Notes under the pieces: generated by a model | The model's input: only the letters and a program-made list of their open reading frames with translations | Databases searched by the model: none | What the model was told of the DNA's origin: nothing | In this document: positions 1 to 35,196 of the stretch, piece after piece | Numbering within the stretch: position 1 is the first letter of the stretch | Layout: every line of letters starts with the position of its first letter | Translations under genes and position numbers: made by a program | IMG/VR virus record: IMGVR_UViG_3300031227_009907 | Span: 17,577-81,576 of that record | Origin: a virus | Length of the DNA stretch: 64,000 bases | Direction: 5' to 3' (one strand)

Positions 1-1
1 C

Positions 2-205
2 GCTGACGATCATGGAGGGGAAGCACTCGGGCAGGACGTTGTTGAGCGCCTCGATGAACTCCACAAGCGTAAGATTGACCTGTGTGATTGGGTGATGGTG
101 CTTAATGTGGATGGTTATATTGGAGAAAGCACAAGTTCTGAGATTGAATACGCACGGAAACATGGGAAGCCTATTAAATACTTGTGTCCAGAATTTGTGA
201 AATAA
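2..205 (+). CDS. 3' part of nucleoside 2-deoxyribosyltransferase-like protein (truncated by window start)
   Basis: Frame 2 reads ...LDELHKRKIDLCDWVMVLNVDGYIGESTSSEIEYARKHGKPIKY*, typical of small phage NDT-like proteins. Confidence 0.7.
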   Translation, partial: ADDHGGEALGQDVVERLDELHKRKIDLCDWVMVLNVDGYIGESTSSEIEYARKHGKPIKYLCPEFVK

Positions 206-210
206 AATGT

Positions 211-297
211 GGGCCAGTGGCGGAACGGCAGACGCAAGGGACTTAAAATCCCTCGTTATTAAATAACATATGGGTTCGACTCCCATCTGGCCCACCA
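211..297 (+). tRNA. tRNA-Leu(UAA)
   Basis: GGGCCAG/CTGGCCC acceptor, AGGGA-CT-TAA-AA-TCCCT anticodon arm, long variable arm, GGTTCGA T-loop, encoded CCA. Confidence 0.95.
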
Positions 298-308
298 TTT
301 ATATATAA

Positions 309-384
309 GGGGATGTAACTCAATCGGCAGAGTAACGCCCTTTTAAGGCGTGAGTTCGGGGTTCGAGTCCCCGCGTCCCCACCA
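309..384 (+). tRNA. tRNA-Lys(UUU)
   Basis: GGGGATG/CGTCCCC acceptor, ACGCC-CT-TTT-AA-GGCGT anticodon arm, GTTCGAG T-loop, encoded CCA. Confidence 0.95.
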
Positions 385-389
385 TTTAT

Positions 390-479
390 GGGATCGTAGC
401 TCAGTTTGGACAGAGCATTCGCCTTATAAGCGAAAGGCCATTTTGGTTCACGTTGGTTCAAATCCAACCGGTCCCACCA
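390..479 (+). tRNA. tRNA with UAU anticodon (nominal Ile) and 17-nt variable arm
   Basis: GGGATCG/CGGTCCC acceptor, GCTC/GAGC D-stem, TTCGC-CT-TAT-AA-GCGAA, variable region AGGCCATTTTGGTTCAC, GTTGG-TTCAAAT-CCAAC, ACCA. Confidence 0.9.
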
Positions 480-501
480 ATATAGCTTGGGGAATATTTA
501 A

Positions 502-1560
502 GTGAGTATTTCTATTAAAATAGATGAAAAGTTTCTTAAGTGTAAAAGTGTAGATGTTCGTGATGTTCTTAGAAAGGTTAATGTTGATATTGCAAGTGAA
601 ACAGATAAGGATTATATAGTTCGTTGCATCAATTCAGCCCACAAAGATAGACATCCTTCCCTTCGCATATGTAAGGTATCTGGATTATTTCATTGTTATC
701 CCTGTGGGACAGGGGGGGACATTGTTAAATTTGTTTCTATTCTAATGGGGATAAATAGAGAAGAATCTTTTGAATATATTTTTGGCGAAAGTTATTCTAT
801 GGGAGAGATAGAAATGTTAAAATCAAGATTGAATTCTGTAAAGGAGGATTTAATTGAGGTGCCAAAATTACAAGAATATAAGATTCCTAAGGCTGCTGTT
901 TTAGCGGACACAAGAGGATATGGATACCACCACAATATAATGAAACTATTTTTTGCCTATTTGAAAGGGAGAGGTATATCGACTAAAACGATAACAGCTT
1001 TTAATGTTATGGGAGTTAAAGATATTAAGGGGGCTCTTTTTATTCTTTTTCCTGTAGTTGTTGGAGGAAAGTGTATAGGGACGGTTAAAAGGTCTATTAA
1101 AGGAAAAGTATTCCTGAACAGTAAAAGGTTTCCTATGAAATATGTTTTATATAATGTTGATAGAGTTAAAAGTGGGAAACCTGTTGTGTTGACAGAGAGC
1201 ATATTTAATGTTTTAAGGACATATCAGGCTGGCTATACTGCCGTAGGAATATTAGGATCAGTATGGAATGAGTATAAATGCTCATTGCTCATTAGAAGGA
1301 AGCCAAGTAGATTTATATTCTTTTATGATAGAGACTCTGCCGGTATCCAGCTATTTCATAAGGCCGCAAAAGATTTGTTGAGCTTTGGTTCAGTGAGTGT
1401 TGTTTCTTGGGACCATATGTCTAAGGTTAGGGCTAATGGTAAGAAGATTAATGATGCGGCTGATTTAACAGAGAAGGAAGTAAAGATGATGATATTAAAT
1501 GCGAAGACAGTTAATAGATATGAAGAGTGGGATAGTTTAAGAGAGAGGTTGGTGAGGTGA
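502..1560 (+). CDS. DNA primase (CHC2 zinc finger + TOPRIM)
   Basis: C..H.D..PS..CYPC zinc-binding domain; TESIFN and YDRDSAG TOPRIM motifs; ND.AD. Confidence 0.85.
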   Translation: MSISIKIDEKFLKCKSVDVRDVLRKVNVDIASETDKDYIVRCINSAHKDRHPSLRICKVSGLFHCYPCGTGGDIVKFVSILMGINREESFEYIFGESYSMGEIEMLKSRLNSVKEDLIEVPKLQEYKIPKAAVLADTRGYGYHHNIMKLFFAYLKGRGISTKTITAFNVMGVKDIKGALFILFPVVVGGKCIGTVKRSIKGKVFLNSKRFPMKYVLYNVDRVKSGKPVVLTESIFNVLRTYQAGYTAVGILGSVWNEYKCSLLIRRKPSRFIFFYDRDSAGIQLFHKAAKDLLSFGSVSVVSWDHMSKVRANGKKINDAADLTEKEVKMMILNAKTVNRYEEWDSLRERLVR

Positions 1561-1886
1561 AGAAAATAGTAAAGTTTGAATCTAATGAAGTCCCGTATGT
1601 GCCTCTTTATACGATGAGTGTATTTGATCGTGCAGGAAGGTTAGCTCGTTTGAATAGGCTTATGTTTGTTTTATTTGATAAACTTAGAATTCTTGGAGTG
1701 TGGCAATTTATTAAATATAAAATAATGCCTCGTTGGATTAGAAAGGAATTTATTGGAGTGCCTGGTTTATTTTTAGGGGATAGTCTTTTACTTGGGGTTG
1801 TGCAAGCTACAATAAAATACAATAATGCAATGACATATAATAGGAAATTTTTTACCGATATGGGGATTAGGGGGAACTATTCGTGA
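1557..1886 (+). CDS. hypothetical protein
   Basis: GTGA overlap with primase stop, GAGG SD. Confidence 0.6.
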   Translation: MKKIVKFESNEVPYVPLYTMSVFDRAGRLARLNRLMFVLFDKLRILGVWQFIKYKIMPRWIRKEFIGVPGLFLGDSLLLGVVQATIKYNNAMTYNRKFFTDMGIRGNYS

Positions 1887-1914
1887 ACAAATTAAAACAC
1901 GATAGAACGATATA

Positions 1915-1944
1915 GGGTGGTCTACCGTTAGGGGGGGCCATTTT
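1915..1944 (+). terminator. possible intrinsic terminator
   Basis: GGTGGTCT..GGGGCCATT stem with short T run, after a gene block and before an AT-rich spacer. Confidence 0.4.
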
Positions 1945-2102
1945 GAACTGCTAAAGAGATATATAATAATGATACCCGGTATGCGGTATCTTGGGCTCCT
2001 AGCAAGTTTTATTCCATTATATCAAAAATATAAAATAAAATGGTTTTATCTTTGGCATAAGATTTGCTCCCATTATATTCTTAATTATTCTTTGGAATTA
2101 CC

Positions 2103-2131
2103 TTGACTATGCTCTGTGCATATGGTATGCT
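2103..2131 (+). promoter_or_regulatory. sigma70-type early promoter
   Basis: TTGACT-17nt-TATGCT with TG extended -10 and AT-rich upstream DNA. Confidence 0.75.
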
Positions 2132-2174
2132 TTACATGTGGGTTTAGAGTCCATTGTCTAAGGGAATTTCAGAT

Positions 2175-2456
2175 ATGCAAACCTTGAGTCACGAAAATGG
2201 GAGTATCTCTGTCTATCGTGGACCTTGGCAAATCATGGTTGCCGTCAAACATTGTCTCTGTTCTGATGGGAGAAAAAGAAGAGTCAGGATTACTGCGGTC
2301 CCTGATACGTTTTTTACTGTGTCCGGTTCTGTCCAGGTCAAAGGGAAAACGGTATCTGGATTCGTCACTACCTCTGCCACATGGAGTGGCGCCAAAGAAG
2401 GTCTTATATTTGTATCAAAAAGATATGGGAAAAATGCGAGTCTATTGCCGGAATAG
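2175..2456 (+). CDS. hypothetical early protein
   Basis: ORF directly behind promoter; DTFFTV..V.VKGKTVSGFVT pattern. Confidence 0.7.
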   Translation: MQTLSHENGSISVYRGPWQIMVAVKHCLCSDGRKRRVRITAVPDTFFTVSGSVQVKGKTVSGFVTTSATWSGAKEGLIFVSKRYGKNASLLPE

Positions 2457-2475
2457 ATGCAGCCTGGGAAGAATT

Positions 2476-2822
2476 CAAGGCAAGCTTAGAGTCTTAGAGT
2501 ATGAAGGAGCTTGAAAATGAGATATTACTACGCTGCCCAGAGTCCGAAAGGGTCTCGTAATGAGGTAAACGTACATCGGTTCAACTTGCGCGCATCCCGT
2601 GACGCTTGGGTCTCGGAGCATCGGTCCGACGGTGGCGTCAACAGTGTCACGCGGGGTGCGTACGTCCTGACCGCTGTTTCTGCGTGTCGCAAGCTTGCGA
2701 CCGTAAGCATGAATGTAACTACCTCTCTCGTGGATCACGACGGGCTAGGAGAGCGTCCGATCTAAAGACCTAAATTATGGATGGGAAGCAAGGCAACCTT
2801 AGAGTCTTAGAGTATAAAGGAG
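2476..2822 (+). repeat. 34-bp direct repeat pair (2476-2509, 2789-2822) flanking ORF 2517-2765
   Basis: CAAGGCAA(G/C)CTTAGAGTCTTAGAGTAT(G/A)AAGGAG; related cores at ~3006, 3336, 4182. Confidence 0.9.
2517..2765 (+). CDS. hypothetical early protein (GC-rich)
   Basis: AAGGAG SD then ATG; GC-richer than flanks. Confidence 0.7.
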   Translation: MRYYYAAQSPKGSRNEVNVHRFNLRASRDAWVSEHRSDGGVNSVTRGAYVLTAVSACRKLATVSMNVTTSLVDHDGLGERPI

Positions 2823-2828
2823 TCCAGA

Positions 2829-3002
2829 GTGTACACAGTCAAAGATTGCGCCGGAAGTGTTTCTTGTCTAAATCGGAGGGAATTGCGGGCTGTCTTGAGA
2901 TATGAAGGTCTCACGCGCAAGGCCTTATTCTTTGTGCTGAAGGCACTAGACTTTTACCGTGTCGTCGTGAATGTTGGGGCGTTGTCTGTCTCTAGGGTTT
3001 AG
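2829..3002 (+). CDS. hypothetical 57-aa protein (not in ORF track)
   Basis: AAAGGAG SD, GTG start, (M)YTVKDCAGSVSCLNRRELRAVL...SRV*. Confidence 0.55.
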   Translation: MYTVKDCAGSVSCLNRRELRAVLRYEGLTRKALFFVLKALDFYRVVVNVGALSVSRV

Positions 3003-3031
3003 TTGAGAGTCCTAAAAGGGAGAGTCCGGTA

Positions 3032-3307
3032 ATGAAAAAACCGAAAGTGATCCATGTTAGTGGGCGTCGGTGGTTTGATAAGGCAAGCGGCAACACGTAC
3101 CATACGTGCAGAATTTGGGCAGATGTAGACTGCGTCTATGTCTCGGGTATCACATGTGGATGCGGTAGTCAATATAAGGCTACCGCCGAAAGCTGGTTAT
3201 ACGAGAATGGATATCTGGAGGATATAGGAAAGAAAGGCATTACATTTGTAAGCGACGTTTCTGATGTTGGACGGCTTAAAGACCTTTGGGGACAACAGCA
3301 GAATTGA
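3032..3307 (+). CDS. hypothetical early protein, paralog of 4206-4508
   Basis: KPKVIHVSGRRWF..GNTYHTCRIW shared with 4206-4508. Confidence 0.75.
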   Translation: MKKPKVIHVSGRRWFDKASGNTYHTCRIWADVDCVYVSGITCGCGSQYKATAESWLYENGYLEDIGKKGITFVSDVSDVGRLKDLWGQQQN

Positions 3308-4200
3308 GGAATCTTTGTGTTGGGCATTGGAAAGTTTAGAGTCTTAGGGAGAGTTTGCAATGGTATCTCAAGCAGACAACGTGCAAGGTATCGCCGATAA
3401 GTTTGTCGGCAATTGGAAAAAATTTGATTCGTTTAGTTGGTCGGGTATGCCCGATTGTGCCGATGAATGCGGCATATATTACGTGGGTACGCGCGATTCT
3501 GGTTTGCTAGAGGAAAGTAATTCTCAAGCGATTCAAGCGTCTCTAGAGCAGCACATGGGAGACATAGATGAAGGTGGCGATATACGAATTGAAACACATA
3601 GTCATTATGCGTTTGGGTGGATAGAGGGATTGACTATCCGCGTATATCGTTGTGGCGTTTTTACGAAAGGATTTTTAGCGTTTGTTGAATTGTTGACGGC
3701 GCTAGAATCCTATCCCATCCTAGATGAACAGGATTGGTCCAGGCGCGAATATGAAGCCACCCTTGAGAGCATATCAGAGGTAGGCGGGAGCTTTGTATCT
3801 GATGATGTGTCTGAGGGCTGGCAAGGGGCAGTTTTTTCAGCTTTGGACGATAGACAAGTTGAGTCTAGAGACGGCAACGGTGGATACCCTGAAGAATCCG
3901 CCGTCAGACAGGCGCTAGGGGGACTAGGCTACTTGGACAGGGGATATGTTATCGAAGATATTGAGTCAAGCCTTGATTTATTTGGTCTTTGGCTAGATAC
4001 ATTCCCTGACGATATTGCCGATATCGTGCTTGACAGGTTGACCAAGGGGAATAAAGAGGTTATCGGGCAAGGTAGGTTGCCGGGCATGGAAAGTGTTGAC
4101 CTGGCAGACTATGGCGTCTCTGACCTTTACCTTGGGGACAACAGCAGAATTGAAAAGTCTTTGTGTTGGGCATTGAAAGGTCTAAAGTCTTAGGGAGAGT
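3281..4200 (+). repeat. ~75-bp direct repeat pair (3281-3355, 4122-4200) flanking ORF 3360-4193
   Basis: TTGGGGACAACAGCAGAATTGA..TCTTTGTGTTGGGCATTG..AGTCTTAGGGAGAGT twice. Confidence 0.9.
3360..4193 (+). CDS. acidic hypothetical early protein
   Basis: 277 aa, GGGAG SD; DS..LE.SN, H.A.GW.E, YP.LDE motifs. Confidence 0.8.
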   Translation: MVSQADNVQGIADKFVGNWKKFDSFSWSGMPDCADECGIYYVGTRDSGLLEESNSQAIQASLEQHMGDIDEGGDIRIETHSHYAFGWIEGLTIRVYRCGVFTKGFLAFVELLTALESYPILDEQDWSRREYEATLESISEVGGSFVSDDVSEGWQGAVFSALDDRQVESRDGNGGYPEESAVRQALGGLGYLDRGYVIEDIESSLDLFGLWLDTFPDDIADIVLDRLTKGNKEVIGQGRLPGMESVDLADYGVSDLYLGDNSRIEKSLCWALKGLKS

Positions 4201-4205
4201 CTGTA

Positions 4206-4508
4206 ATGCGAAAACCGAAAGTGATCCACGTTAGTGGGCGTCGGTGGTTCGGGAAAACTAATGGCAACACGTACCATACGTGCAGAATTTGGGTAGACGG
4301 AAAATTGGTTTATGTTTCAGGTCTCACATACGGGTACAGAGACCAGTATGAGGCTACGGCTGAAAGGTGGCTATATGAAAATGGATACCTGAAGGGGATA
4401 GAATCATATTCTAACGGGGGCCGGGAATCCCTGTATTACTATTGCGAAAAGAAAGGCATCAAACTTGTGAGCGACGTCTCAGACGTTTGTCGGCGTAAAG
4501 ACCTGTAG
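4206..4508 (+). CDS. hypothetical early protein, paralog of 3032-3307
   Basis: High identity to 3032-3307. Confidence 0.8.
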   Translation: MRKPKVIHVSGRRWFGKTNGNTYHTCRIWVDGKLVYVSGLTYGYRDQYEATAERWLYENGYLKGIESYSNGGRESLYYYCEKKGIKLVSDVSDVCRRKDL

Positions 4509-4609
4509 GGGATATGCCAAGGTCTGTGTTTATTTAGAGGGTCCGCATCCGAATCGCGTTATCTGGGATGCGATAGGGATTGTTGAGGGTGGCGTCTTGG
4601 TAGAGATTT

Positions 4610-4858
4610 TTAGATAGTTTTCTTAAGGGGATAAGCCAGGATGAGAGTAAAAAAGCCTGTGTTGAAAAATCTTAGGATGAAACATAAAGAGATATTGGAA
4701 ATGGTTGAGCAGGCTAGATTCAATCTGAGACTTTGGATCGAATTTAGCGAAGATGCAATGTACGAAAAAGGGATAGGCTTTGATTGTTTGTTGGCTGTGG
4801 AAAATCTTCTCAATAAAGCTCTTAGATAGTTTTCTTAAGGAGATATGCCAGGATGAGA
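4610..4858 (+). repeat. 37-bp direct repeat pair (4610-4646, 4822-4858) containing SD + start codon
   Basis: TTAGATAGTTTTCTTAAGG(G/A)GATA(A/T)GCCAGGATGAGA twice. Confidence 0.9.
4641..4829 (+). CDS. hypothetical protein
   Basis: SD+ATG within repeat; 62 aa. Confidence 0.6.
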   Translation: MRVKKPVLKNLRMKHKEILEMVEQARFNLRLWIEFSEDAMYEKGIGFDCLLAVENLLNKALR

Positions 4859-5275
4859 AGAAACGAGCATTCAGTTAAATCAAGTGACCGGGTTGAGTTA
4901 GGAGAGTACATTTGCTCAATATATCCGCTTGTTGGCGTAACCGTTGACGGCAGAGTAATACGCGATTCAAGCAATGTTCCGAATGTCGATTCAATTGCTG
5001 CGTCTGTGCTCTATTATGACGTGCTCCCTGGACTTAGGGAAGTTCGCATGGTTGATTTTGAATTGACCGGGAAGCACTATTCTGTCAAGGGGAATAATCG
5101 GATTCGTGCGCTTCAAGGGGCGATTGCCGAAAGCAATGAGATTGCGCCGCTTATCGTTGTCGTTGATGAGGGGGGACCTTATATCCTGGAGGGGGCGACG
5201 CGGGCAGATGCGTTGTATAATCTTGGCGCGAAGTCGTTTCCGGCTCTGGTGGTAATAGACGTGGAAAGTCCTTGA
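4853..5275 (+). CDS. ParB/Srx N-terminal-like domain protein
   Basis: IAPLIVVVD..GPYILEGATRADAL resembles ParB P.IV..dG.HR motif (His replaced). Confidence 0.55.
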   Translation: MRRNEHSVKSSDRVELGEYICSIYPLVGVTVDGRVIRDSSNVPNVDSIAASVLYYDVLPGLREVRMVDFELTGKHYSVKGNNRIRALQGAIAESNEIAPLIVVVDEGGPYILEGATRADALYNLGAKSFPALVVIDVESP

Positions 5276-5285
5276 ATAATTTTCC

Positions 5286-5313
5286 TTGACTTCTCGTGGT
5301 TTTGTGATATGTT
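5286..5313 (+). promoter_or_regulatory. sigma70-type promoter
   Basis: TTGACT-16nt-TATGTT with TG extension; same CCTTGACT context as 2103. Confidence 0.55.
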
Positions 5314-5333
5314 TGTATAGTGAGGTCTTGAAA

Positions 5334-5606
5334 GTCTTTTTTCATGGAGCAGAAAAATGGAAGTGAAGTATCCGAATGTGAAGGTTTCATTGGTTGGGAA
5401 AAGCGGAGAGGCTTTTGCAATTCTTGGGGCTGTTGAAGAGGCAATGCGAAGGGCTGGTGTCAACAAAGCAGATAGAGACCGGTACATGGATGAGGCTACG
5501 GCTGGTGATTATGATGCGCTTTTGCAAACGACTATGAAGTGGGTTGAAGTCGAATAGTTTTCTAATGAATTTTTCTTGTCTTTTTTTTCATGGAGCAGAA
5601 AAATGG
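5334..5606 (+). repeat. direct repeat pair (5334-5360, 5578-5606) containing SD + ATG
   Basis: GTCT(n)CATGGAGCAGAAAAATGG twice, flanking ORF 5357-5557. Confidence 0.85.
5357..5557 (+). CDS. small conserved phage/MGE protein
   Basis: LVG..G.AFAILG.V..A.RRAG..A..GDYD.LL...M.WV pattern. Confidence 0.8.
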   Translation: MEVKYPNVKVSLVGKSGEAFAILGAVEEAMRRAGVNKADRDRYMDEATAGDYDALLQTTMKWVEVE

Positions 5607-6388
5607 CGTATCTAGAGAGAATCCCTGTTGGCGATTTTCCGGCAATCGTTAATATGTTAGGGGAAAAAGGGTCTAAAAAATTGGGCTACAACACGTATCT
5701 GGAGTGGAGGAAAGGAGCGCATTCAAAGGGCTGTATCGGGATTAGGTACAATAGCACTTTCGTTGTAACCTATTATCACGATGGGAAAATTGAGCTTAAT
5801 AGTGGCGGCTGGAAAACGCGAACAACTAAACAACGGATTGTTCATGGGTTGCCTGGAGGGTGGAGTTTGAGTCAGAGGGATTCTGTGTGGTATCTGTCTA
5901 ATGGTAGCGTTGATTGGCAGTTCGCAGACGGTATTATCATTGTGCCCGATGGGACCGTTGTAAGTGGCGCTAATCGTACGCTAAGAGAGATTTTTGCGCT
6001 AAAGAAGAAAATTTTAGAGTACTGCAAGGATTATATCGAAAAGCTTTTCAACGGGCATGTTCCGGCCCCTAGTCGTGCGGATTGTTGGTATTGTTTTTTG
6101 AGTACGCGAGAGGGTGTCCCGGTAGGAGAGGCTACCGGTAACATAGATCACCTTGAGAGTCACTTTGAAAGGAGATACTACGTTCCCAGTCTGCTGACTC
6201 GTGCCATTGCAGTAATCCCCGTGTCTAGGCTCGCAATGTCGGTTCTGGGGACATTCTGGGGGGGGAATTGGGCTGAGAGGCAAAAAAGGCAGGCTCTTAA
6301 TTCTGGGTGGAGCAAGGGGATTGCTAAGGAGCAGCTATGTAAAAGCCTCTACAGGTATCTAACGCGGCAATTCGGTTTTGCCAGCTAA
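5603..6388 (+). CDS. hypothetical early protein
   Basis: GGAG SD; NTYL..LNSGGW.T.TTK.R pattern. Confidence 0.8.
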   Translation: MAYLERIPVGDFPAIVNMLGEKGSKKLGYNTYLEWRKGAHSKGCIGIRYNSTFVVTYYHDGKIELNSGGWKTRTTKQRIVHGLPGGWSLSQRDSVWYLSNGSVDWQFADGIIIVPDGTVVSGANRTLREIFALKKKILEYCKDYIEKLFNGHVPAPSRADCWYCFLSTREGVPVGEATGNIDHLESHFERRYYVPSLLTRAIAVIPVSRLAMSVLGTFWGGNWAERQKRQALNSGWSKGIAKEQLCKSLYRYLTRQFGFAS

Positions 6389-6440
6389 GGGGCGGCTTTT
6401 TAATGGGGCTATAGAAAGATAAATCTAAAGGAGAAGTCTA

Positions 6441-7109
6441 ATGGGTTTCAAAGTATTCATTTGTTCGGTGTGTGGCAAAGAAGTTTCTAGAAAAAAATCA
6501 TATGCACTTCCCGATGGGACTCGGGCTTGTCGCGAGCACGAGGTTGCACAGTCGGGACGGCAAGAACTTCAAAAAAGGGAAATTGCCAAGAAGGCGGCTG
6601 AACAGACGAAACGAAGGAAAATAAAGGAACGCGGGGAATTTTTTGGTGAGCCTTTTTGGGGTATGAACCATTGTTGGACCTGTGGGGCTGAGGGAACTCC
6701 TCCGAACGAAATAAAAGACCGTATGATGATTGCGTGGGAGAAGGTGCGTCTGAAGGCAGAGTCGGACCCGTTCGCCGCTCCTATCAATTTTCTATCTCCC
6801 AATTTTTTTATTGCGCTGAGGAAAGAATCGGGGATAGAAAATCCTCTTATACAATTCGTAGTGTCTCCCGAGAGGATGGGAGAAATTCTCAATCGTACTA
6901 AGCACTCTCAGAGACAGGCAGTTGAATTTGTCGGGATTACGCAGATATGTCCGAAGTGCGCCAAGGAACTAGGAATGGAGCCACCCTCCATTCCCGAAAT
7001 AAACATAGAGAATTTGTCTACAATGAGCGCTATCTATGATGTAATGGTTAGGCCAGCGGTGGAAGATCGGGCACGGGCTGAAATTAGGGAAGAGGTCGCT
7101 AGAAACTGA
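6441..7109 (+). CDS. Zn-finger hypothetical protein
   Basis: CSVC..CREH, CWTC, CPKC. Confidence 0.75.
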   Translation: MGFKVFICSVCGKEVSRKKSYALPDGTRACREHEVAQSGRQELQKREIAKKAAEQTKRRKIKERGEFFGEPFWGMNHCWTCGAEGTPPNEIKDRMMIAWEKVRLKAESDPFAAPINFLSPNFFIALRKESGIENPLIQFVVSPERMGEILNRTKHSQRQAVEFVGITQICPKCAKELGMEPPSIPEINIENLSTMSAIYDVMVRPAVEDRARAEIREEVARN

Positions 7110-7162
7110 AATTAAGGGGATTGTTTACATATGTTTTATTTGTCTAAAAAGGAGTCTTTGAA

Positions 7163-7915
7163 ATGTTGAACGTGGAAGTATGCGGTAGAGAAAAGACGTT
7201 GGCTCAGTTGAAACTAATCCCTGTAGATCGTCCTGAGAGGGCGTCGGACCGGGGGCACGGTGTCTCACACCACGAACTAGCCACGGGGCTGCTAGGCGAG
7301 TTCCAGGACAGGGAAATTGACGTTGTGGGGCATAGGTGGGCGACCGATAAGACAAATCAGGTTTTAGTGGGGGCTATTGAGGTAAAATTTCCCGAAGAAT
7401 TCGACGTTCCTGAGATCGCTGGCATGGGATATTGTCTGGGCGTACGTCATTCAAATGATTTGAGGTATGCGCTCGTGGGGGCCGTTGGCGCAAGAGTTTT
7501 TGCTTGTTCTAATGGCGTTATCACGGGGCAATTCGTTATGTCTCGGAGGCATACGAAAAACATTGACCTTGATGAGCAGATTTATAACGGGATTACACGT
7601 TTCATCAGAGAGGCCAGAGGCGTTAGTTTCTTTGTGGATACTCTCCAGGAGAGAAAATTGTCTGATTCGGATAGTGATAGGATTCTCATGGAGGCAGGCC
7701 GGCAAAGGCTCATCCCGTGGAGTCGAATTGGGCGGATCGATAGAGAGTATCACAATCCGTCTTGTGAGGAGTTTGAGCCCGGGAATGCCTGGGGGCTGTA
7801 TAACGCTTTTACGCGATACGTCCAGCTATCCCCTCCACACGATCAGATGAGAGCGATTGCGGGATTTAGGCCGGTTATTCTTGGAGAGAAGCCAGAAACA
7901 TATCTTGGAAATTAA
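7163..7915 (+). CDS. DUF932-family protein
   Basis: LGVRHSND..GARVFACSNG..RRHT..WGLYNAFT signature. Confidence 0.75.
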   Translation: MLNVEVCGREKTLAQLKLIPVDRPERASDRGHGVSHHELATGLLGEFQDREIDVVGHRWATDKTNQVLVGAIEVKFPEEFDVPEIAGMGYCLGVRHSNDLRYALVGAVGARVFACSNGVITGQFVMSRRHTKNIDLDEQIYNGITRFIREARGVSFFVDTLQERKLSDSDSDRILMEAGRQRLIPWSRIGRIDREYHNPSCEEFEPGNAWGLYNAFTRYVQLSPPHDQMRAIAGFRPVILGEKPETYLGN

Positions 7916-7926
7916 GGGAGAAAGAA

Positions 7927-8109
7927 ATGAGTGGAACCGTAGAGAAATTGTCGGATGAAGACTTTGCAGAAAGGGTTAAACAAATGGTCTTAGACATTGA
8001 TCCTAATGAGATCAACCCAGAGGAATTGGATAGCTTTCTTGGGTCTTTATGGGTCACTTTTGGTCTTGATGTCTTTTTTGAAGATGGTTCCTGGCGTATC
8101 CATAAGTAG
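7927..8109 (+). CDS. small acidic hypothetical protein
   Basis: GGGAG SD, 60 aa. Confidence 0.6.
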   Translation: MSGTVEKLSDEDFAERVKQMVLDIDPNEINPEELDSFLGSLWVTFGLDVFFEDGSWRIHK

Positions 8110-31505: not shown

Positions 31506-32264
31506 ATGGGTAAGAGTGTAAAAGGGAAAGGAACGATTACTAGTGAAATTAGTGGGATATATGATAAATATAGCGGGGGTGAGATAAGCAAGGATGAGTT
31601 GGGCGAAAGGATTTTTCCTTATCTTGAGAATTTAGCGGCTTATTATTTTCAAAAAGCAATTAAAGATGGTTTTGGTGAAAATGATGGCGTTTTTTCTACC
31701 ATTATTACAAAAGAAGAGATTCTTTCTGATTTAGCTTACAATTTTGTGCGCTCTATAGATAGGTTTGATCCCTCTAAGAATGTTACATTTGGAACATTTT
31801 TTTTCAAGAGAGCTATATTTTCTATATTTAATGTGTATAGGGCCATATTAGGCAGAAGTAAAAATTGTCATGTTTTTAACGCAACGGACGAAAGAGAGGG
31901 GTGCCCTCGATCTTTTTCATTAGATAACCCTAAACCCCATATAACTTTTTTATTTGACAATATTGTTTCAAGAGATAGGACTACTTCATATGGGGCCTTT
32001 AAATTGGGAAAGGCTGTAGACGCAAGCATGGGGACTACGGTTGTTATTGCTACTGGAAATGTGTTAAGGCGGCTTAAGGATGGACATAAATTATGGGGGG
32101 GGTGGTTTATATTGCATTATTGTGGAGATGTTACATTGGCTGATATTGCGAGAAAGAATGGTGTAACATTAGCATATATACATCAGAAAGTTAAAAGCAT
32201 AAAAGAAAAAATAAAGATTGAATGTAAGAGATTGGATAGAGAGGGGTCTTTTATAAATGTTTAA
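31506..32264 (+). CDS. phage sigma70-family factor (late?)
   Basis: IDRFDPSKNVTFGTF region 2; TLADIARKNGVT region 4. Confidence 0.75.
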   Translation: MGKSVKGKGTITSEISGIYDKYSGGEISKDELGERIFPYLENLAAYYFQKAIKDGFGENDGVFSTIITKEEILSDLAYNFVRSIDRFDPSKNVTFGTFFFKRAIFSIFNVYRAILGRSKNCHVFNATDEREGCPRSFSLDNPKPHITFLFDNIVSRDRTTSYGAFKLGKAVDASMGTTVVIATGNVLRRLKDGHKLWGGWFILHYCGDVTLADIARKNGVTLAYIHQKVKSIKEKIKIECKRLDREGSFINV

Positions 32265-35196
32265 TCCCGGTATGAATGCGTTTGAAATGGCTAAAAAATG
32301 TTTGTGCGAAATAGGCAGACAGGGGGAAGAGTATTTTAGAAGGAAAATAAGCGATCCTCCTTCTCGTTCTTGTTTTAAAGAATATCCCGTTTCCACAAGA
32401 GAGTTTTTTAATAAATGGCTTGGAGAACCTTGTTATCCCTTACAGCAGAAAGGAATAGATAATCTTCTTGGAAGAAATCCCCTTAAGTGGAATATAAGAT
32501 ATAACGAGGGGATACTTTTTTGGGGAAAGGGAGGGGGAAAAGATAGAACGATTGCAAAACTTCTTGCTTATGTTATTTATTGGTGTATGTGTTTAAAAAA
32601 TCCACAGAAGTTTTTTGAGAAACAAGGAAAAGATAGTCAAATTGCTTTTGGTAATGTTTCTATCAATAGGGATCAGGCAGCACAAGTATTTTTTAGAGAA
32701 TTTAAAGCTATTCTTCGTAATATTGTTGACCCAAGAACAAAAAATAATTGGTTTGAAGATCATGGGGTGAATTTAAGTGAATCAAGGGGACACATTCATA
32801 AACGCGACATTGAATTTCCAGGAAATCTTGTTGCCTATTCTCTTGATTCTCGGGAATACACAGGAGAGGGGTATAATCTATTAGTTGTTATTTTTGACGA
32901 GATGGGGGGCTTTAGGCCCGAGGATGCCTTCCCTTTGTATGGTGCGTTAAAAGACACACAAACTTCTCGATTTCCATTAACACATAAGAGGGCTTTATTA
33001 TCATTTCAGCGGAGTCCTACTGATCCGATGAGTATTCGCTACGAGGAAGCTAAAACAGAGCCCAGGACATACAGAATGAGGGCTTCTACGTGGGAAGTCA
33101 ATGCGGCTAGAAAAAAAGAAGATTTTTCTGAAGAGTTCCTTAAAAATCCTGAGCAGGCAGAACGTGTTTTTATGTGTAAGGCAAGGGTAGGAGAAAGAGG
33201 ATTTTTTAGATACCCACAAGTTATTGCTGGGGGAATAAATAGGCAAAGGCCCAACCCTATTATAGCGGGGTCTTCTCGTATTTTTGATTTAATGAAATTG
33301 AAAATAGACGGGCTTAGACCCGATTTTATTGGTAATCCTAATCTTCAGTATTTTGGGCATTGTGATTTGGGCACTGGTTCTATAAAGAAAAAAAGAGGAG
33401 GGAAAGAGTCTTTTTCTCCTTCAAACGAAAGAGATTGTGCTGGATTTTGTTTAGGTCATATTGTAAAGACGAAGGTTAGGGCGTTTAGAAGCGTAGGGGG
33501 AGAAAGCAAGTCAATTATTGAAGGAGTTGACCTTTCTAGGTTTAATGGGAAAGAGATGTATGGTGTCTATATTGATATATTTTTTCAATTGACCGTAAAA
33601 GAAGGGGAAATATTTTTTCCATCTATTATTGATTTTATTGACTATCTACAGAGAATTCGTGGGTTTTATATTAAGAAATTCACGTACGATGGATGGCAAT
33701 GCGTTTTTTCAGATACATATATCCCCCTATTAAGTGGGAGGAAGATTAAAATAAAGGATTTGGTGGGAAACTATGAAGGAAAATATGTTTATTCTTATGA
33801 TATAAAAACGGGGAAGGTTGTTCCGGGAAGGGTAATTGGTGCAAAAAAAACAGGCAGAAAGAGAATTTTAAAGATAACATTAGATAATGGTAAATTTATT
33901 AAGTGTTCTTGTGGGCATCCTTTTTTAATGAGGAATGGTAGATATAAAAGGGCAAGAGATTTAAAGGTTGGAGATTCTTTAATGCCTTTATGTCGGCGTT
34001 TTTGGAAAGGTAAAATTAAAGGATACACGGAAGTATATCACCCTGAGAGTCGATATTATGAGATGGTTCATAGCATTGTTGCGAGAGAAGTTTTACAAGG
34101 AAGAAAGAAGAATGAAGTAGTCCATCATAAAAACTTTGTTAAGTGTAATAATAATCCTGATAACTTATGTGTGATGGATAGGAAAAGCCACATAGGGTTA
34201 CACGGTAAAAATGTTAGGAAGTTATGGAAGATTCCGTATTATAGAAGATTGTTTATGGACGGGATTAGGAAGGTCTCAAAATGGAGGAGCAATAATAGAG
34301 AATATAAGGATAAGGTAAGGGAGATAATTAAGAGGGTTTGGCAAGGAAGAAGTATAGAAGAAAGGAAGAAACTTTCTCAAAGAATTGCTAAGAGTGTAAA
34401 GAAATTGTGGGATGATCCCAATTATAGGGAAAAACAGCGAAAAGCCCATTTAGGGAATCCGGGTTTTTGGAAAGGTAAAAATAGATCGCCTGAAACTTGT
34501 GCAAAAATAAGTAAAACGAAAATGGGAGTTAAGCACGGGAAATATAAAAATCATAAAATTGTTTCTATTGAAATGGAGGGGATGGAAGATGTTTATGACA
34601 TTAAGGTAGAGAAATATAATAATTTTGCTTTATCTGCTGGTGTTTTTGTTCATAATTCAAAAAGTGATATTCAGCGTCTTAAGGCTATGGGGATTAATTC
34701 TGAGGTGTTGTCCGTAGATAGAGATGCCGTTGCGTATGATACAATGAAAGGACTAATGTACTTAGGCCTGTTGGATTATTATAATAATCTTATTTTTATA
34801 CGTGAATGTGAGGAATTGGAAAAAATAGAGAGGGGGAACAAATATATTGTTGACCATCCTGCGCGTAGTGTAACCAGGCGAGTTCAAGAGGGGCGTATAT
34901 CGGGGTCTAAGGATTTAACCGATTCTTGCGCAGCCACATGTTTTCACTGCATGGAAAGTGCTGGGGTTGAGTTTAGTTTTGGGATTCTTAATATGCAACC
35001 GTCTGAAACCGATAACCTTTTAAGGGATAGGGACCATAGAGGGGCTGAAAAGTATTATGAAATAGTAAGAGGAAGAGAAGTTCAAAAAGGGGTTGATACA
35101 TTGAAACAATTAAGACAAGTCCCATTGGTCCGGTATGGAGAGATTCCCGCACAGGAATTTCCTGAGGTTGATGATGTTCTTAATCTAGGGAGGTAG
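32257..35196 (+). CDS. terL: terminase large subunit with intein
   Basis: GKGGGKD Walker A, VIFDE Walker B, HCDLG and YDGWQ/S nuclease motifs, SKDLTD. Confidence 0.9.
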   Translation: MFNPGMNAFEMAKKCLCEIGRQGEEYFRRKISDPPSRSCFKEYPVSTREFFNKWLGEPCYPLQQKGIDNLLGRNPLKWNIRYNEGILFWGKGGGKDRTIAKLLAYVIYWCMCLKNPQKFFEKQGKDSQIAFGNVSINRDQAAQVFFREFKAILRNIVDPRTKNNWFEDHGVNLSESRGHIHKRDIEFPGNLVAYSLDSREYTGEGYNLLVVIFDEMGGFRPEDAFPLYGALKDTQTSRFPLTHKRALLSFQRSPTDPMSIRYEEAKTEPRTYRMRASTWEVNAARKKEDFSEEFLKNPEQAERVFMCKARVGERGFFRYPQVIAGGINRQRPNPIIAGSSRIFDLMKLKIDGLRPDFIGNPNLQYFGHCDLGTGSIKKKRGGKESFSPSNERDCAGFCLGHIVKTKVRAFRSVGGESKSIIEGVDLSRFNGKEMYGVYIDIFFQLTVKEGEIFFPSIIDFIDYLQRIRGFYIKKFTYDGWQCVFSDTYIPLLSGRKIKIKDLVGNYEGKYVYSYDIKTGKVVPGRVIGAKKTGRKRILKITLDNGKFIKCSCGHPFLMRNGRYKRARDLKVGDSLMPLCRRFWKGKIKGYTEVYHPESRYYEMVHSIVAREVLQGRKKNEVVHHKNFVKCNNNPDNLCVMDRKSHIGLHGKNVRKLWKIPYYRRLFMDGIRKVSKWRSNNREYKDKVREIIKRVWQGRSIEERKKLSQRIAKSVKKLWDDPNYREKQRKAHLGNPGFWKGKNRSPETCAKISKTKMGVKHGKYKNHKIVSIEMEGMEDVYDIKVEKYNNFALSAGVFVHNSKSDIQRLKAMGINSEVLSVDRDAVAYDTMKGLMYLGLLDYYNNLIFIRECEELEKIERGNKYIVDHPARSVTRRVQEGRISGSKDLTDSCAATCFHCMESAGVEFSFGILNMQPSETDNLLRDRDHRGAEKYYEIVRGREVQKGVDTLKQLRQVPLVRYGEIPAQEFPEVDDVLNLGR
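33700..34656 (+). mobile_element. intein (319 aa) with HNH homing endonuclease and NUMOD3-like motifs
   Basis: Q|CVFSDT N-junction, GHPFL block B, VHHKN..NN.PDNL HNH, VYDI.V..NFAL..VFVHN|S C-junction. Confidence 0.95.

Follow-up and report, generated by a model that had tools for sequence, protein, structure and literature searches.

By textbook, the bacterial tRNAs with long variable arms are those for Leu, Ser, Tyr and Sec, and we know of no cellular tRNA-Ile with a class-II-like architecture. The known exceptions have either switched identity (the nev-tRNAs) or are suspected missense or nonsense suppressors (the allo-tRNAs). The stretch of viral DNA analyzed here, called the window, is 64,000 nucleotides long and runs to the end of an IMG/VR virus contig of 81.6 kb, the estimated completeness of which is 78%. 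At 390–479, on the + strand, it encodes a tRNA with the anticodon UAU and an extra arm in the variable region. Does such a tRNA still insert isoleucine at AUA, or does the arm go with a different amino acid? The initial annotation had left two alternatives: an AUA decoder that needs no lysidine and has an unusual arm, or a tRNA charged with something other than isoleucine. The first fits all of the evidence presented below, and the second is not supported.

The DNA of this phage is unchanged across many salt-lake metagenome runs from 2017 to 2019. In the contigs of four salt-lake runs, no variants were found in the tRNA-Ile gene, and the stretches derived from the phage match without differences. 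A megablast search of window positions 1–8000 against GenBank phages gave no match. With the adjacent primase as the query, nothing was found in viral contigs, and among 5.8 billion proteins only the primase itself was returned; an identical primase is present in ten contigs. Nearly all of the window genes are on the + strand. Among them are genes for a DnaB-type helicase, a DnaG-type primase, DnaE, RecA, SbcCD-like proteins, a portal, an SU10-type capsid protein, an intein-bearing protein of 979 residues and many glycosyl- and methyltransferases. The 979-residue frame (32257–35196), in the structural-gene part, contains an intein splicing domain and an HNH endonuclease; its location makes it a candidate for the large terminase, but the Pfam search gave no terminase match for it. 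A cytidine/dCMP deaminase-family protein is encoded at 43349–43861, and a B12-binding radical SAM protein, cut by the contig end, at 63043–63999. No tie to tRNA metabolism could be made for either. A Pfam scan of about 60 ORFs of the phage found neither a synthetase nor a tRNA-modifying enzyme, which suggests that charging and modification are left to host enzymes.

The gene belongs to a cluster of three tRNA genes located between the gene 3' of the DnaB-type helicase gene and the primase gene. Its two companions, both on the + strand and both detected by ARAGORN and Rfam, are a tRNA-Leu(UAA) at 211–297 and an ordinary class I tRNA-Lys(UUU) at 309–384. The tRNA-Leu is a true class II tRNA with a D arm (GGCGGAA..GACGC) that does not resemble the one in the Ile gene. 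The phage makes considerable use of the three A-ending codons concerned: TTA is 31% of Leu codons, AAA is 53% of Lys codons and ATA is 37% of Ile codons. The phage had been called ATA-rich in the initial annotation, and the counts agree, with about 25 ATA per 1000 codons throughout the genome. The major capsid gene (58048–59115) has ATA in 2 of its 21 Ile codons versus 37% genome-wide, so AUA may still be decoded slowly.

The tRNA itself is well formed. ARAGORN calls it tRNA-Ile(tat) with boundaries at exactly 390 and 479, 90 nucleotides including an encoded CCA. The Rfam tRNA model RF00005 matches 390–479 with 64.7 bits (E 1.7e-13), above its gathering score of 29, and accommodates the arm as inserted residues. 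The cloverleaf with the extra hairpin is also the minimum-free-energy fold (-29.8 kcal/mol, z -3.3), and none of 200 shuffled sequences folded as well. The acceptor stem (390–396 with 469–475) has 7 bp, one of them U-G, the D stem (GCUC/GAGC) has 4 bp and encloses a 10-nt loop with the GG, and the anticodon stem (418–422 with 430–434) has 5 bp. The sequence, ARAGORN and Rfam all place the anticodon TAT, which as UAU reads AUA, at 425–427 (+ strand) in the loop CUUAUAA (423–429). The T arm (452–468) has a 5-bp stem, which makes the acceptor/T branch 7/5, and the discriminator base A73 is at 476, just ahead of the CCA at 477–479. The variable region occupies 435–451 of the + strand with 17 nt, consisting of AGG, an inserted hairpin and UUCAC, and its last base, C451, pairs with G15 (404). 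The hairpin, predicted by the fold, is GGCCA-UUU-UGGUU at 436–448 (+ strand); its stem (436–440 with 444–448) has two G-U, two C-G and one A-U pair, closed by a UUU loop. Here, the initial annotation was exact throughout: the cloverleaf, the TAT anticodon, the 4-bp D stem, A73 and a 17-nt variable region that folds are all borne out by the sequence, ARAGORN, Rfam and the fold.

Two other candidate features of this region were discarded. A terminator-like match at 421–438 falls inside the tRNA and is no terminator; it arises from an alternative GCCUU/AAGGC pairing of the anticodon stem and loop with the start of the arm. That pairing would compete with the cloverleaf and differs from the minimum-free-energy fold. 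The tRNA genes also account for several sub-threshold Rfam matches, among them YrlA, at 29 bits versus a required 69.

Transfer RNAs of phages that counteract tRNA-targeting host defenses have been reported, and they lend some appeal to the idea that the gene has no translational use, being a decoy, a regulatory tRNA-like RNA or a gene in decay. However, all of the universal features of a tRNA are intact in it (U8, A14, G18G19, U33, the TTC of the T loop, A73 and the encoded CCA), the stems are perfect, and AUA is a frequent codon in this phage. By its RF00005 cloverleaf, its stems and its invariant bases, the gene encodes an elongator tRNA. We consider a role outside of translation very improbable.

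If it is an elongator, then which amino acid does it carry? The length of the variable region (17 nt with a 5-bp hairpin) is that of a class II tRNA. The D arm and the isotype marks are not: the D stem has 4 bp, the core pair is G15-C48, the discriminator is A73 and the anticodon is UAU. Bacterial tRNA-Leu typically has A15-U48, and among the class II isotypes, Ser is marked by G73 and Tyr by the anticodon GUA. The D arm, UAGCUCAG..AGAGC, is of the class-I type and does not resemble the D arms that Leu and Ser tRNAs have in this phage or in the related phage contigs L001 and L005. The anticodon loop has what an isoleucine tRNA has, an NAU anticodon with A35 and U36, followed by A37 and A38. 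The determinants of E. coli tRNA-Ile are A73, U12-A23, C29-G41, C4-G69 and the D-loop residues G16, D20 and D21 (PMC9976931). Of that set (PMC9976931), the window tRNA has A73, U12-A23, C29-G41, A37 and A38, and it differs in having A4-U69 instead of C4-G69 and U16/A20 instead of G16/D20 in the D loop, bearing in mind that the sets vary by taxon. As far as the sequence tells, the body is class-I and Ile-like, not Leu- or Ser-like. Derivation from a Leu or Ser tRNA was considered and dropped on the D arm, G15-C48 and A73.

Both known classes of exception were compared with it. The nematode nev-tRNA-Ile(UAU) likewise joins UAU to a long variable arm (PMC3333845, PMC4300185). The nev-tRNAs, however, are derived from tRNA-Leu and charged with Leu, whereas the window gene has an Ile class-I body, relatives with the anticodon GAU and, as described below, ATA codons that align with Ile. 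A nev-tRNA was rejected because the body is Ile-type and because ATA fits Ile better than Leu. The allo-tRNAs share with the window gene a long variable arm and an anticodon other than those of Leu, Ser and Tyr; UAU is a predominant anticodon among them, and some are found in phages (Mukai et al. 2017, PMC5389517). Their branch is 8/4 or 9/3, their D stem is long and capped by a tetraloop, and their discriminator base is G73 or U73 (PMC5389517). The 7/5 branch, the 4-bp D stem with its 10-nt loop and A73 rule out an allo-tRNA here.

These two classes are nevertheless the best precedents for recoding or mis-acylation, in which the arm and A73 would let LeuRS (or SerRS or ValRS) charge the tRNA and AUA would be wholly or partly translated as something other than Ile. 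An arm together with A73 does superficially resemble a class II tRNA-Leu, nev-tRNA-Ile(UAU) takes only Leu in vitro (PMC3333845) and allo-tRNAs with many anticodons are charged by SerRS (PMC5389517). Against it stand the class-I D arm, G15-C48 and the want of the Ser G73, and also the occurrence of the same arm on tRNAs with the canonical Ile anticodon GAU. The codons of the phage provide another line of evidence. We aligned its DnaE with 120 and its RecA with 149 homologs (269 in total, cellular and mostly about 40% identical) and recorded the residues opposite each codon and their mean BLOSUM62 fit. The 33 ATA columns fit Ile best (2.65, versus 2.21 for Val and 1.82 for Leu), and the 16 ATC columns give the same order (Ile 2.58, Val 2.21, Leu 1.54). 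Controls behave as they should, with Leu on top for each of the Leu codons TTA, TTG and CTT (86 columns) and Met for ATG (27 columns). Where one residue makes up at least 70% of a column, ATA stands opposite Ile in 10 of 17 and TTA plus CTT opposite Leu in 27 of 34. Nor is ATA avoided at critical Ile sites: it occupies the near-invariant Ile columns 62, 217, 270, 360, 519, 652 and 802 of DnaE. No sign of reassignment appears in these DnaE and RecA alignments. ATA is still isoleucine in the evolutionary sense that such a codon comparison reports, which is the meaning of the codon and not which tRNA reads it. Comparison of ATA positions with homologs had been proposed in the initial annotation as a check on recoding; Ile fits best, not Leu, Val or Ser, and recoding gains no support. 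Charging with another amino acid, which had been its second alternative, fails on three counts: ATA faces Ile in DnaE and RecA just as ATC does, the body is not a class II Leu or Ser body, and the closest relative is a tRNA-Ile(GAU) with the same arm. We regard recoding as highly improbable.

To place the gene among its relatives, IMG/VR was scanned for long-armed UAU tRNAs with a pattern constrained at the ends of the D stem, in the UAU loop, by a long gap and in the T loop, and nowhere else. It matched 83 stretches, and restrictive patterns matched at least 120 ordinary short-loop UAU stretches. UAU anticodons had been described as rare, which holds for bacteria and does not hold for phage contigs. 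Pooling the matches and removing archaeal intron cases left 66 distinct, parseable long-armed UAU tRNAs. The branch is 7/5 and the discriminator A73 in all of the 66. Bases 15 and 48 still pair in 60 of them, compared with a mean of 32 after shuffling and with 60 reached in 0 of 5000 shuffles, and so the long arms are seated in a normal tRNA core. A search of phage genomes for just such tRNAs had been suggested in advance, and it produced about 66 further cases in viral contigs. Their arms are of three kinds: GAU-containing loops on covarying stems (L070 and L036 are examples; L numbers are our labels for loci), a large group with AGGCC/AGACC-CUNACAA-GG, and plain hairpins, which is the window's kind. 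A decoy arm displaying GAU was rejected for the window gene, since GGCCA-UUU-UGGUU has neither a GAU nor a 7-nt anticodon-like loop.

The CUNACAA-arm group (e.g., L019:2423–2510, L044 and L059) has features of its own. The third pair of the arm is G-U in 20 cases and A-C in 8, which are isosteric wobble geometries; the fourth arm position is mostly G opposite A; and the 7-nt CUNACAA loop resembles a Val-type (NAC) anticodon loop, not GAU. Three tRNA-Ile(UAU), L041, L066 and L068, have a near-identical 20-nt arm, AGACCUGAACAAGGCAAUG(U/C), on wholly different acceptor, anticodon and T stems, so that at the sequence level their arm is more strongly conserved than the tRNA body.

The nearest kin of the window tRNA have a different anticodon. 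A version of the scan for GAU anticodons found 8 loci. An arm AGGCCA..UGGU..AC, in essence that of the window tRNA, is present in two distinct tRNAs from these loci, L214 and L217/L219 (L217/L219 being on phage contigs of 395 kb and 149 kb). In a set of about 1000 distinct phage tRNAs, the closest to the window gene is the L217 tRNA-Ile(GAU) of a jumbo phage, which is identical at 74 of 89 positions (83%) and has the same arm. It is still the closest after the anticodon region is masked and the hairpin removed. When any NAU anticodon was allowed in front of this arm, the scan also recovered L222 (GAU, with the arm GGCCA-UUA-UGGUU) and, from metagenomes, L221/L223, and the UAU tRNAs of L002/L003 and L021 have arms AGGCC-GAAA-GG. 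Together, these make a group of seven distinct tRNAs (the window, L214, L217/L219, L221, L222, L002/L003 and L021), recognized by an Ile-type class-I body, A73, a variable region of the form AGG-CC-loop-GG-U..(C/U) and a 15-48 pair, all of which the window tRNA has. Counted on parsed stems, the group alignment being too mis-registered for column counts, the pairs kept across the seven number 49 of 49 in the acceptor stem, 35 of 35 in the T stem and 33 of 35 in the anticodon stem, by way of compensatory changes. Such changes point to selection on the cloverleaf. The genes are well diverged in their stems, and the hairpin is intact in every one. Its invariance in L002, L021, L221 and L222 is partly imposed by the search patterns; L214 and L217 were found with no constraint on the arm. 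It had been noted that absence from relatives would make the arm a private insertion. Since the GAU tRNAs of L217, L214 and L222 retain it, it is not one.

In GenBank phage records, blastn with the window tRNA and the L217 tRNA matched only short-loop tRNAs, with a gap opposite the arm, and the best full-length matches of the L217 tRNA are annotated as bacterial-type tRNA-Ile. One CUNACAA-arm tRNA, searched by blastn against cultured phages, had no match. In prokaryotic genome contigs, a narrow pattern found only archaeal intron-bearing tRNA-Ile(UAU) and one defective copy in Peribacteria; with a pattern that narrow, the absence of long-armed UAU tRNAs from bacteria is unproven. The archaeal cases (L007 and L009–L013, from DPANN and other archaea) are encoded UAU tRNA-Ile with an intron just 3' of the anticodon loop, and ARAGORN mostly labels them "undetermined". 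Some long-armed Ile-type tRNAs (L023:780–869, L027, L031 and L221:8903–8990) are labeled by ARAGORN as tRNA-Stop(tta) or Tyr(ata). The mislabeling arises where a weak anticodon stem lets the loop slip out of register, so automatic annotation of long-armed Ile-type tRNAs is unreliable. A literature search turned up the nev-tRNAs, the allo-tRNAs and bacterial UAU tRNAs, and no description of a phage tRNA-Ile with an extra arm.

Putting this together, the gene most probably encodes a working AUA decoder charged by the host's IleRS and belonging to a small lineage of long-armed phage tRNA-Ile, in which the arm leaves amino-acid identity as it was. We observe the fold and the family, see that ATA stands for Ile and find the relationship to long-armed GAU tRNAs; that IleRS charges the tRNA, what state U34 is in and what the arm may do, we infer. 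The lineage would consist of tRNA-Ile with class-I bodies in which a short CC-loop-GG hairpin sits within the loop AGGUC, most of the known members having GAU, and the window gene would have come from such a GAU tRNA by a change of G34 to U. Host isoleucyl-tRNA synthetase would charge the product with isoleucine, and its U34 would read AUA, supplementing the scarce AUA decoder of the host for a phage in which ATA is 37% of Ile codons. With the tRNA-Leu(UAA) and tRNA-Lys(UUU), it would complete a three-gene set for A-ending codons. The arm would project from the core, leaving G15-C48 undisturbed.

There are precedents for the decoding part. In Bacillus subtilis lacking TilS, the change of G34 to U alone yields a functional AUA decoder with an unmodified U34 (PMC3919564), and the tRNA-Ile2 of Mycoplasma mobile is a TilS-independent UAU tRNA to which its IleRS (through Arg865) and its ribosome are adapted (PMC3575796). 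The window gene is like M. mobile tRNA-Ile2 (PMC3575796) and the B. subtilis G34U suppressor that derives from tRNA-Ile1 (PMC3919564) in having an encoded UAU that would read AUA without lysidine, an Ile class-I body and A73, and, like the suppressor, it could plausibly have arisen from a GAU tRNA-Ile through a single base substitution. It differs in that those tRNAs have a normal short variable loop and it has 17 nt with a hairpin. A UAU tRNA was poorly charged by E. coli IleRS, and on E. coli ribosomes an unmodified one misread AUG in addition to reading AUA (PMC3575796). These hurdles count against the proposed decoder, whose function in its host is assumed.

The origin of the arm can be made out better than its role. 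The most frequent variable loop among ordinary phage UAU tRNAs is AGGTC (22 of 105), and the window's variable region, AGG-[CCAUUUUGG]-UUCAC, reads as a GC-clamped hairpin inserted into the Ile loop AGGUC with G15-C48 kept. Such an insertion explains much of the conserved AGG..U..C. GAU tRNAs have the arm too, so in the window's lineage it is no adaptation to U34. We give about even odds that the arm is kept by selection for a reason other than decoding, as a shield against a host enzyme that attacks or alters tRNA-Ile or as a source of extra stability, the alternative being that it is merely a tolerated insertion.

Evidence exists on both sides. The arm could be a functional module, a handle for host IleRS, or a shield or tag directed at a nuclease, a modification enzyme or a phage factor, and we hold this tentatively as one possibility. 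It would account for the retention of the arm in seven tRNAs despite divergence at most positions of their acceptor, anticodon and T stems, for the identical 19–20-nt arm on entirely different stems in L041, L066 and L068 of the CUNACAA-loop group, for the alternation of G-U and A-C at the third arm pair of that group and for the covarying arm stems of the GAU-loop group; and the poor charging of UAU tRNA by E. coli IleRS (PMC3575796) makes a compensating contact through the arm conceivable. However, the window's type of arm is also found on GAU tRNAs, which IleRS already recognizes, and hence it is no repair for U34. The arm loop varies within the window's group (UUU, UUA, CU, UG, AA, GAAA), and arm sequences differ so widely among the groups that no single partner is evident. 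The conservation of AGG..U..C is partly ancestral, from the Ile variable loop, and partly imposed by the search patterns.

The free loop sequence of the window's group is also what is expected if the insertion is neutral. A tRNA accepts extra nucleotides solely in its variable region, and fast-evolving phage genes would gain hairpins there. In accord with this, extra arms occur at a few percent in by-stander class-I tRNAs of phages (Lys, Asn, Thr, Cys, Gln, Trp, Met and Arg), and armed and unarmed tRNA-Ile(GAU) stand side by side in L217. Ordinary short-loop UAU tRNAs, at least 120 of them, outnumber the long-armed ones in phages, which favors neutrality and weakens the module. On the other hand, a neutral insertion of 13 nt should decay or vanish over the stem divergence observed, and the hairpin is intact in all of the members. 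Neutrality is a serious candidate, though short of probable. That the phage tRNA-Ile lineages, GAU and UAU together, have a selected arm serving as a tag or shield against a host tRNA defense or a modifier of U34/C34, or as an aid to IleRS, seems to us rather unlikely.

In the 395-kb contig L217, the tRNA-Ile(GAU) at 5785–5875 is long-armed (91 nt) and the one at 8028–8105 is ordinary (78 nt). In the jumbo-phage contig L213, the arms of Arg(ACG) and Ile(GAU) tRNAs (1450–1536 and 4756–4842) share UACGUAACAGU. In another jumbo-phage contig, L216 (1911–1997, 3804–3890 and 4597–4684), the Thr and Asn arms share GGCGAAAGCC and the Ile(GAU) arm has the shorter GUGAAAGCC. The arm cores shared across isotypes in L213 and L216 raise the possibility that arms serve as phage-specific tags, or that the tRNA genes have undergone gene conversion with one another.

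The finding is one of an unusual tRNA shape and not of a change in the genetic code. The window tRNA has an extra arm and yet is an isoleucine tRNA by every available test; the arm recurs across divergent uncultured phages, and the window gene ties the long-armed UAU tRNAs of phages to tRNAs with the anticodon GAU. For annotation, a long arm with an odd anticodon is no ground for inferring recoding. If the arm is functional, it would point to an unrecognized layer of phage–host interaction around AUA decoding or tRNA-targeting defense, and it would offer a natural scaffold for tagging tRNAs. If it is neutral, it would mean that phage tRNA genes freely explore the variable region.
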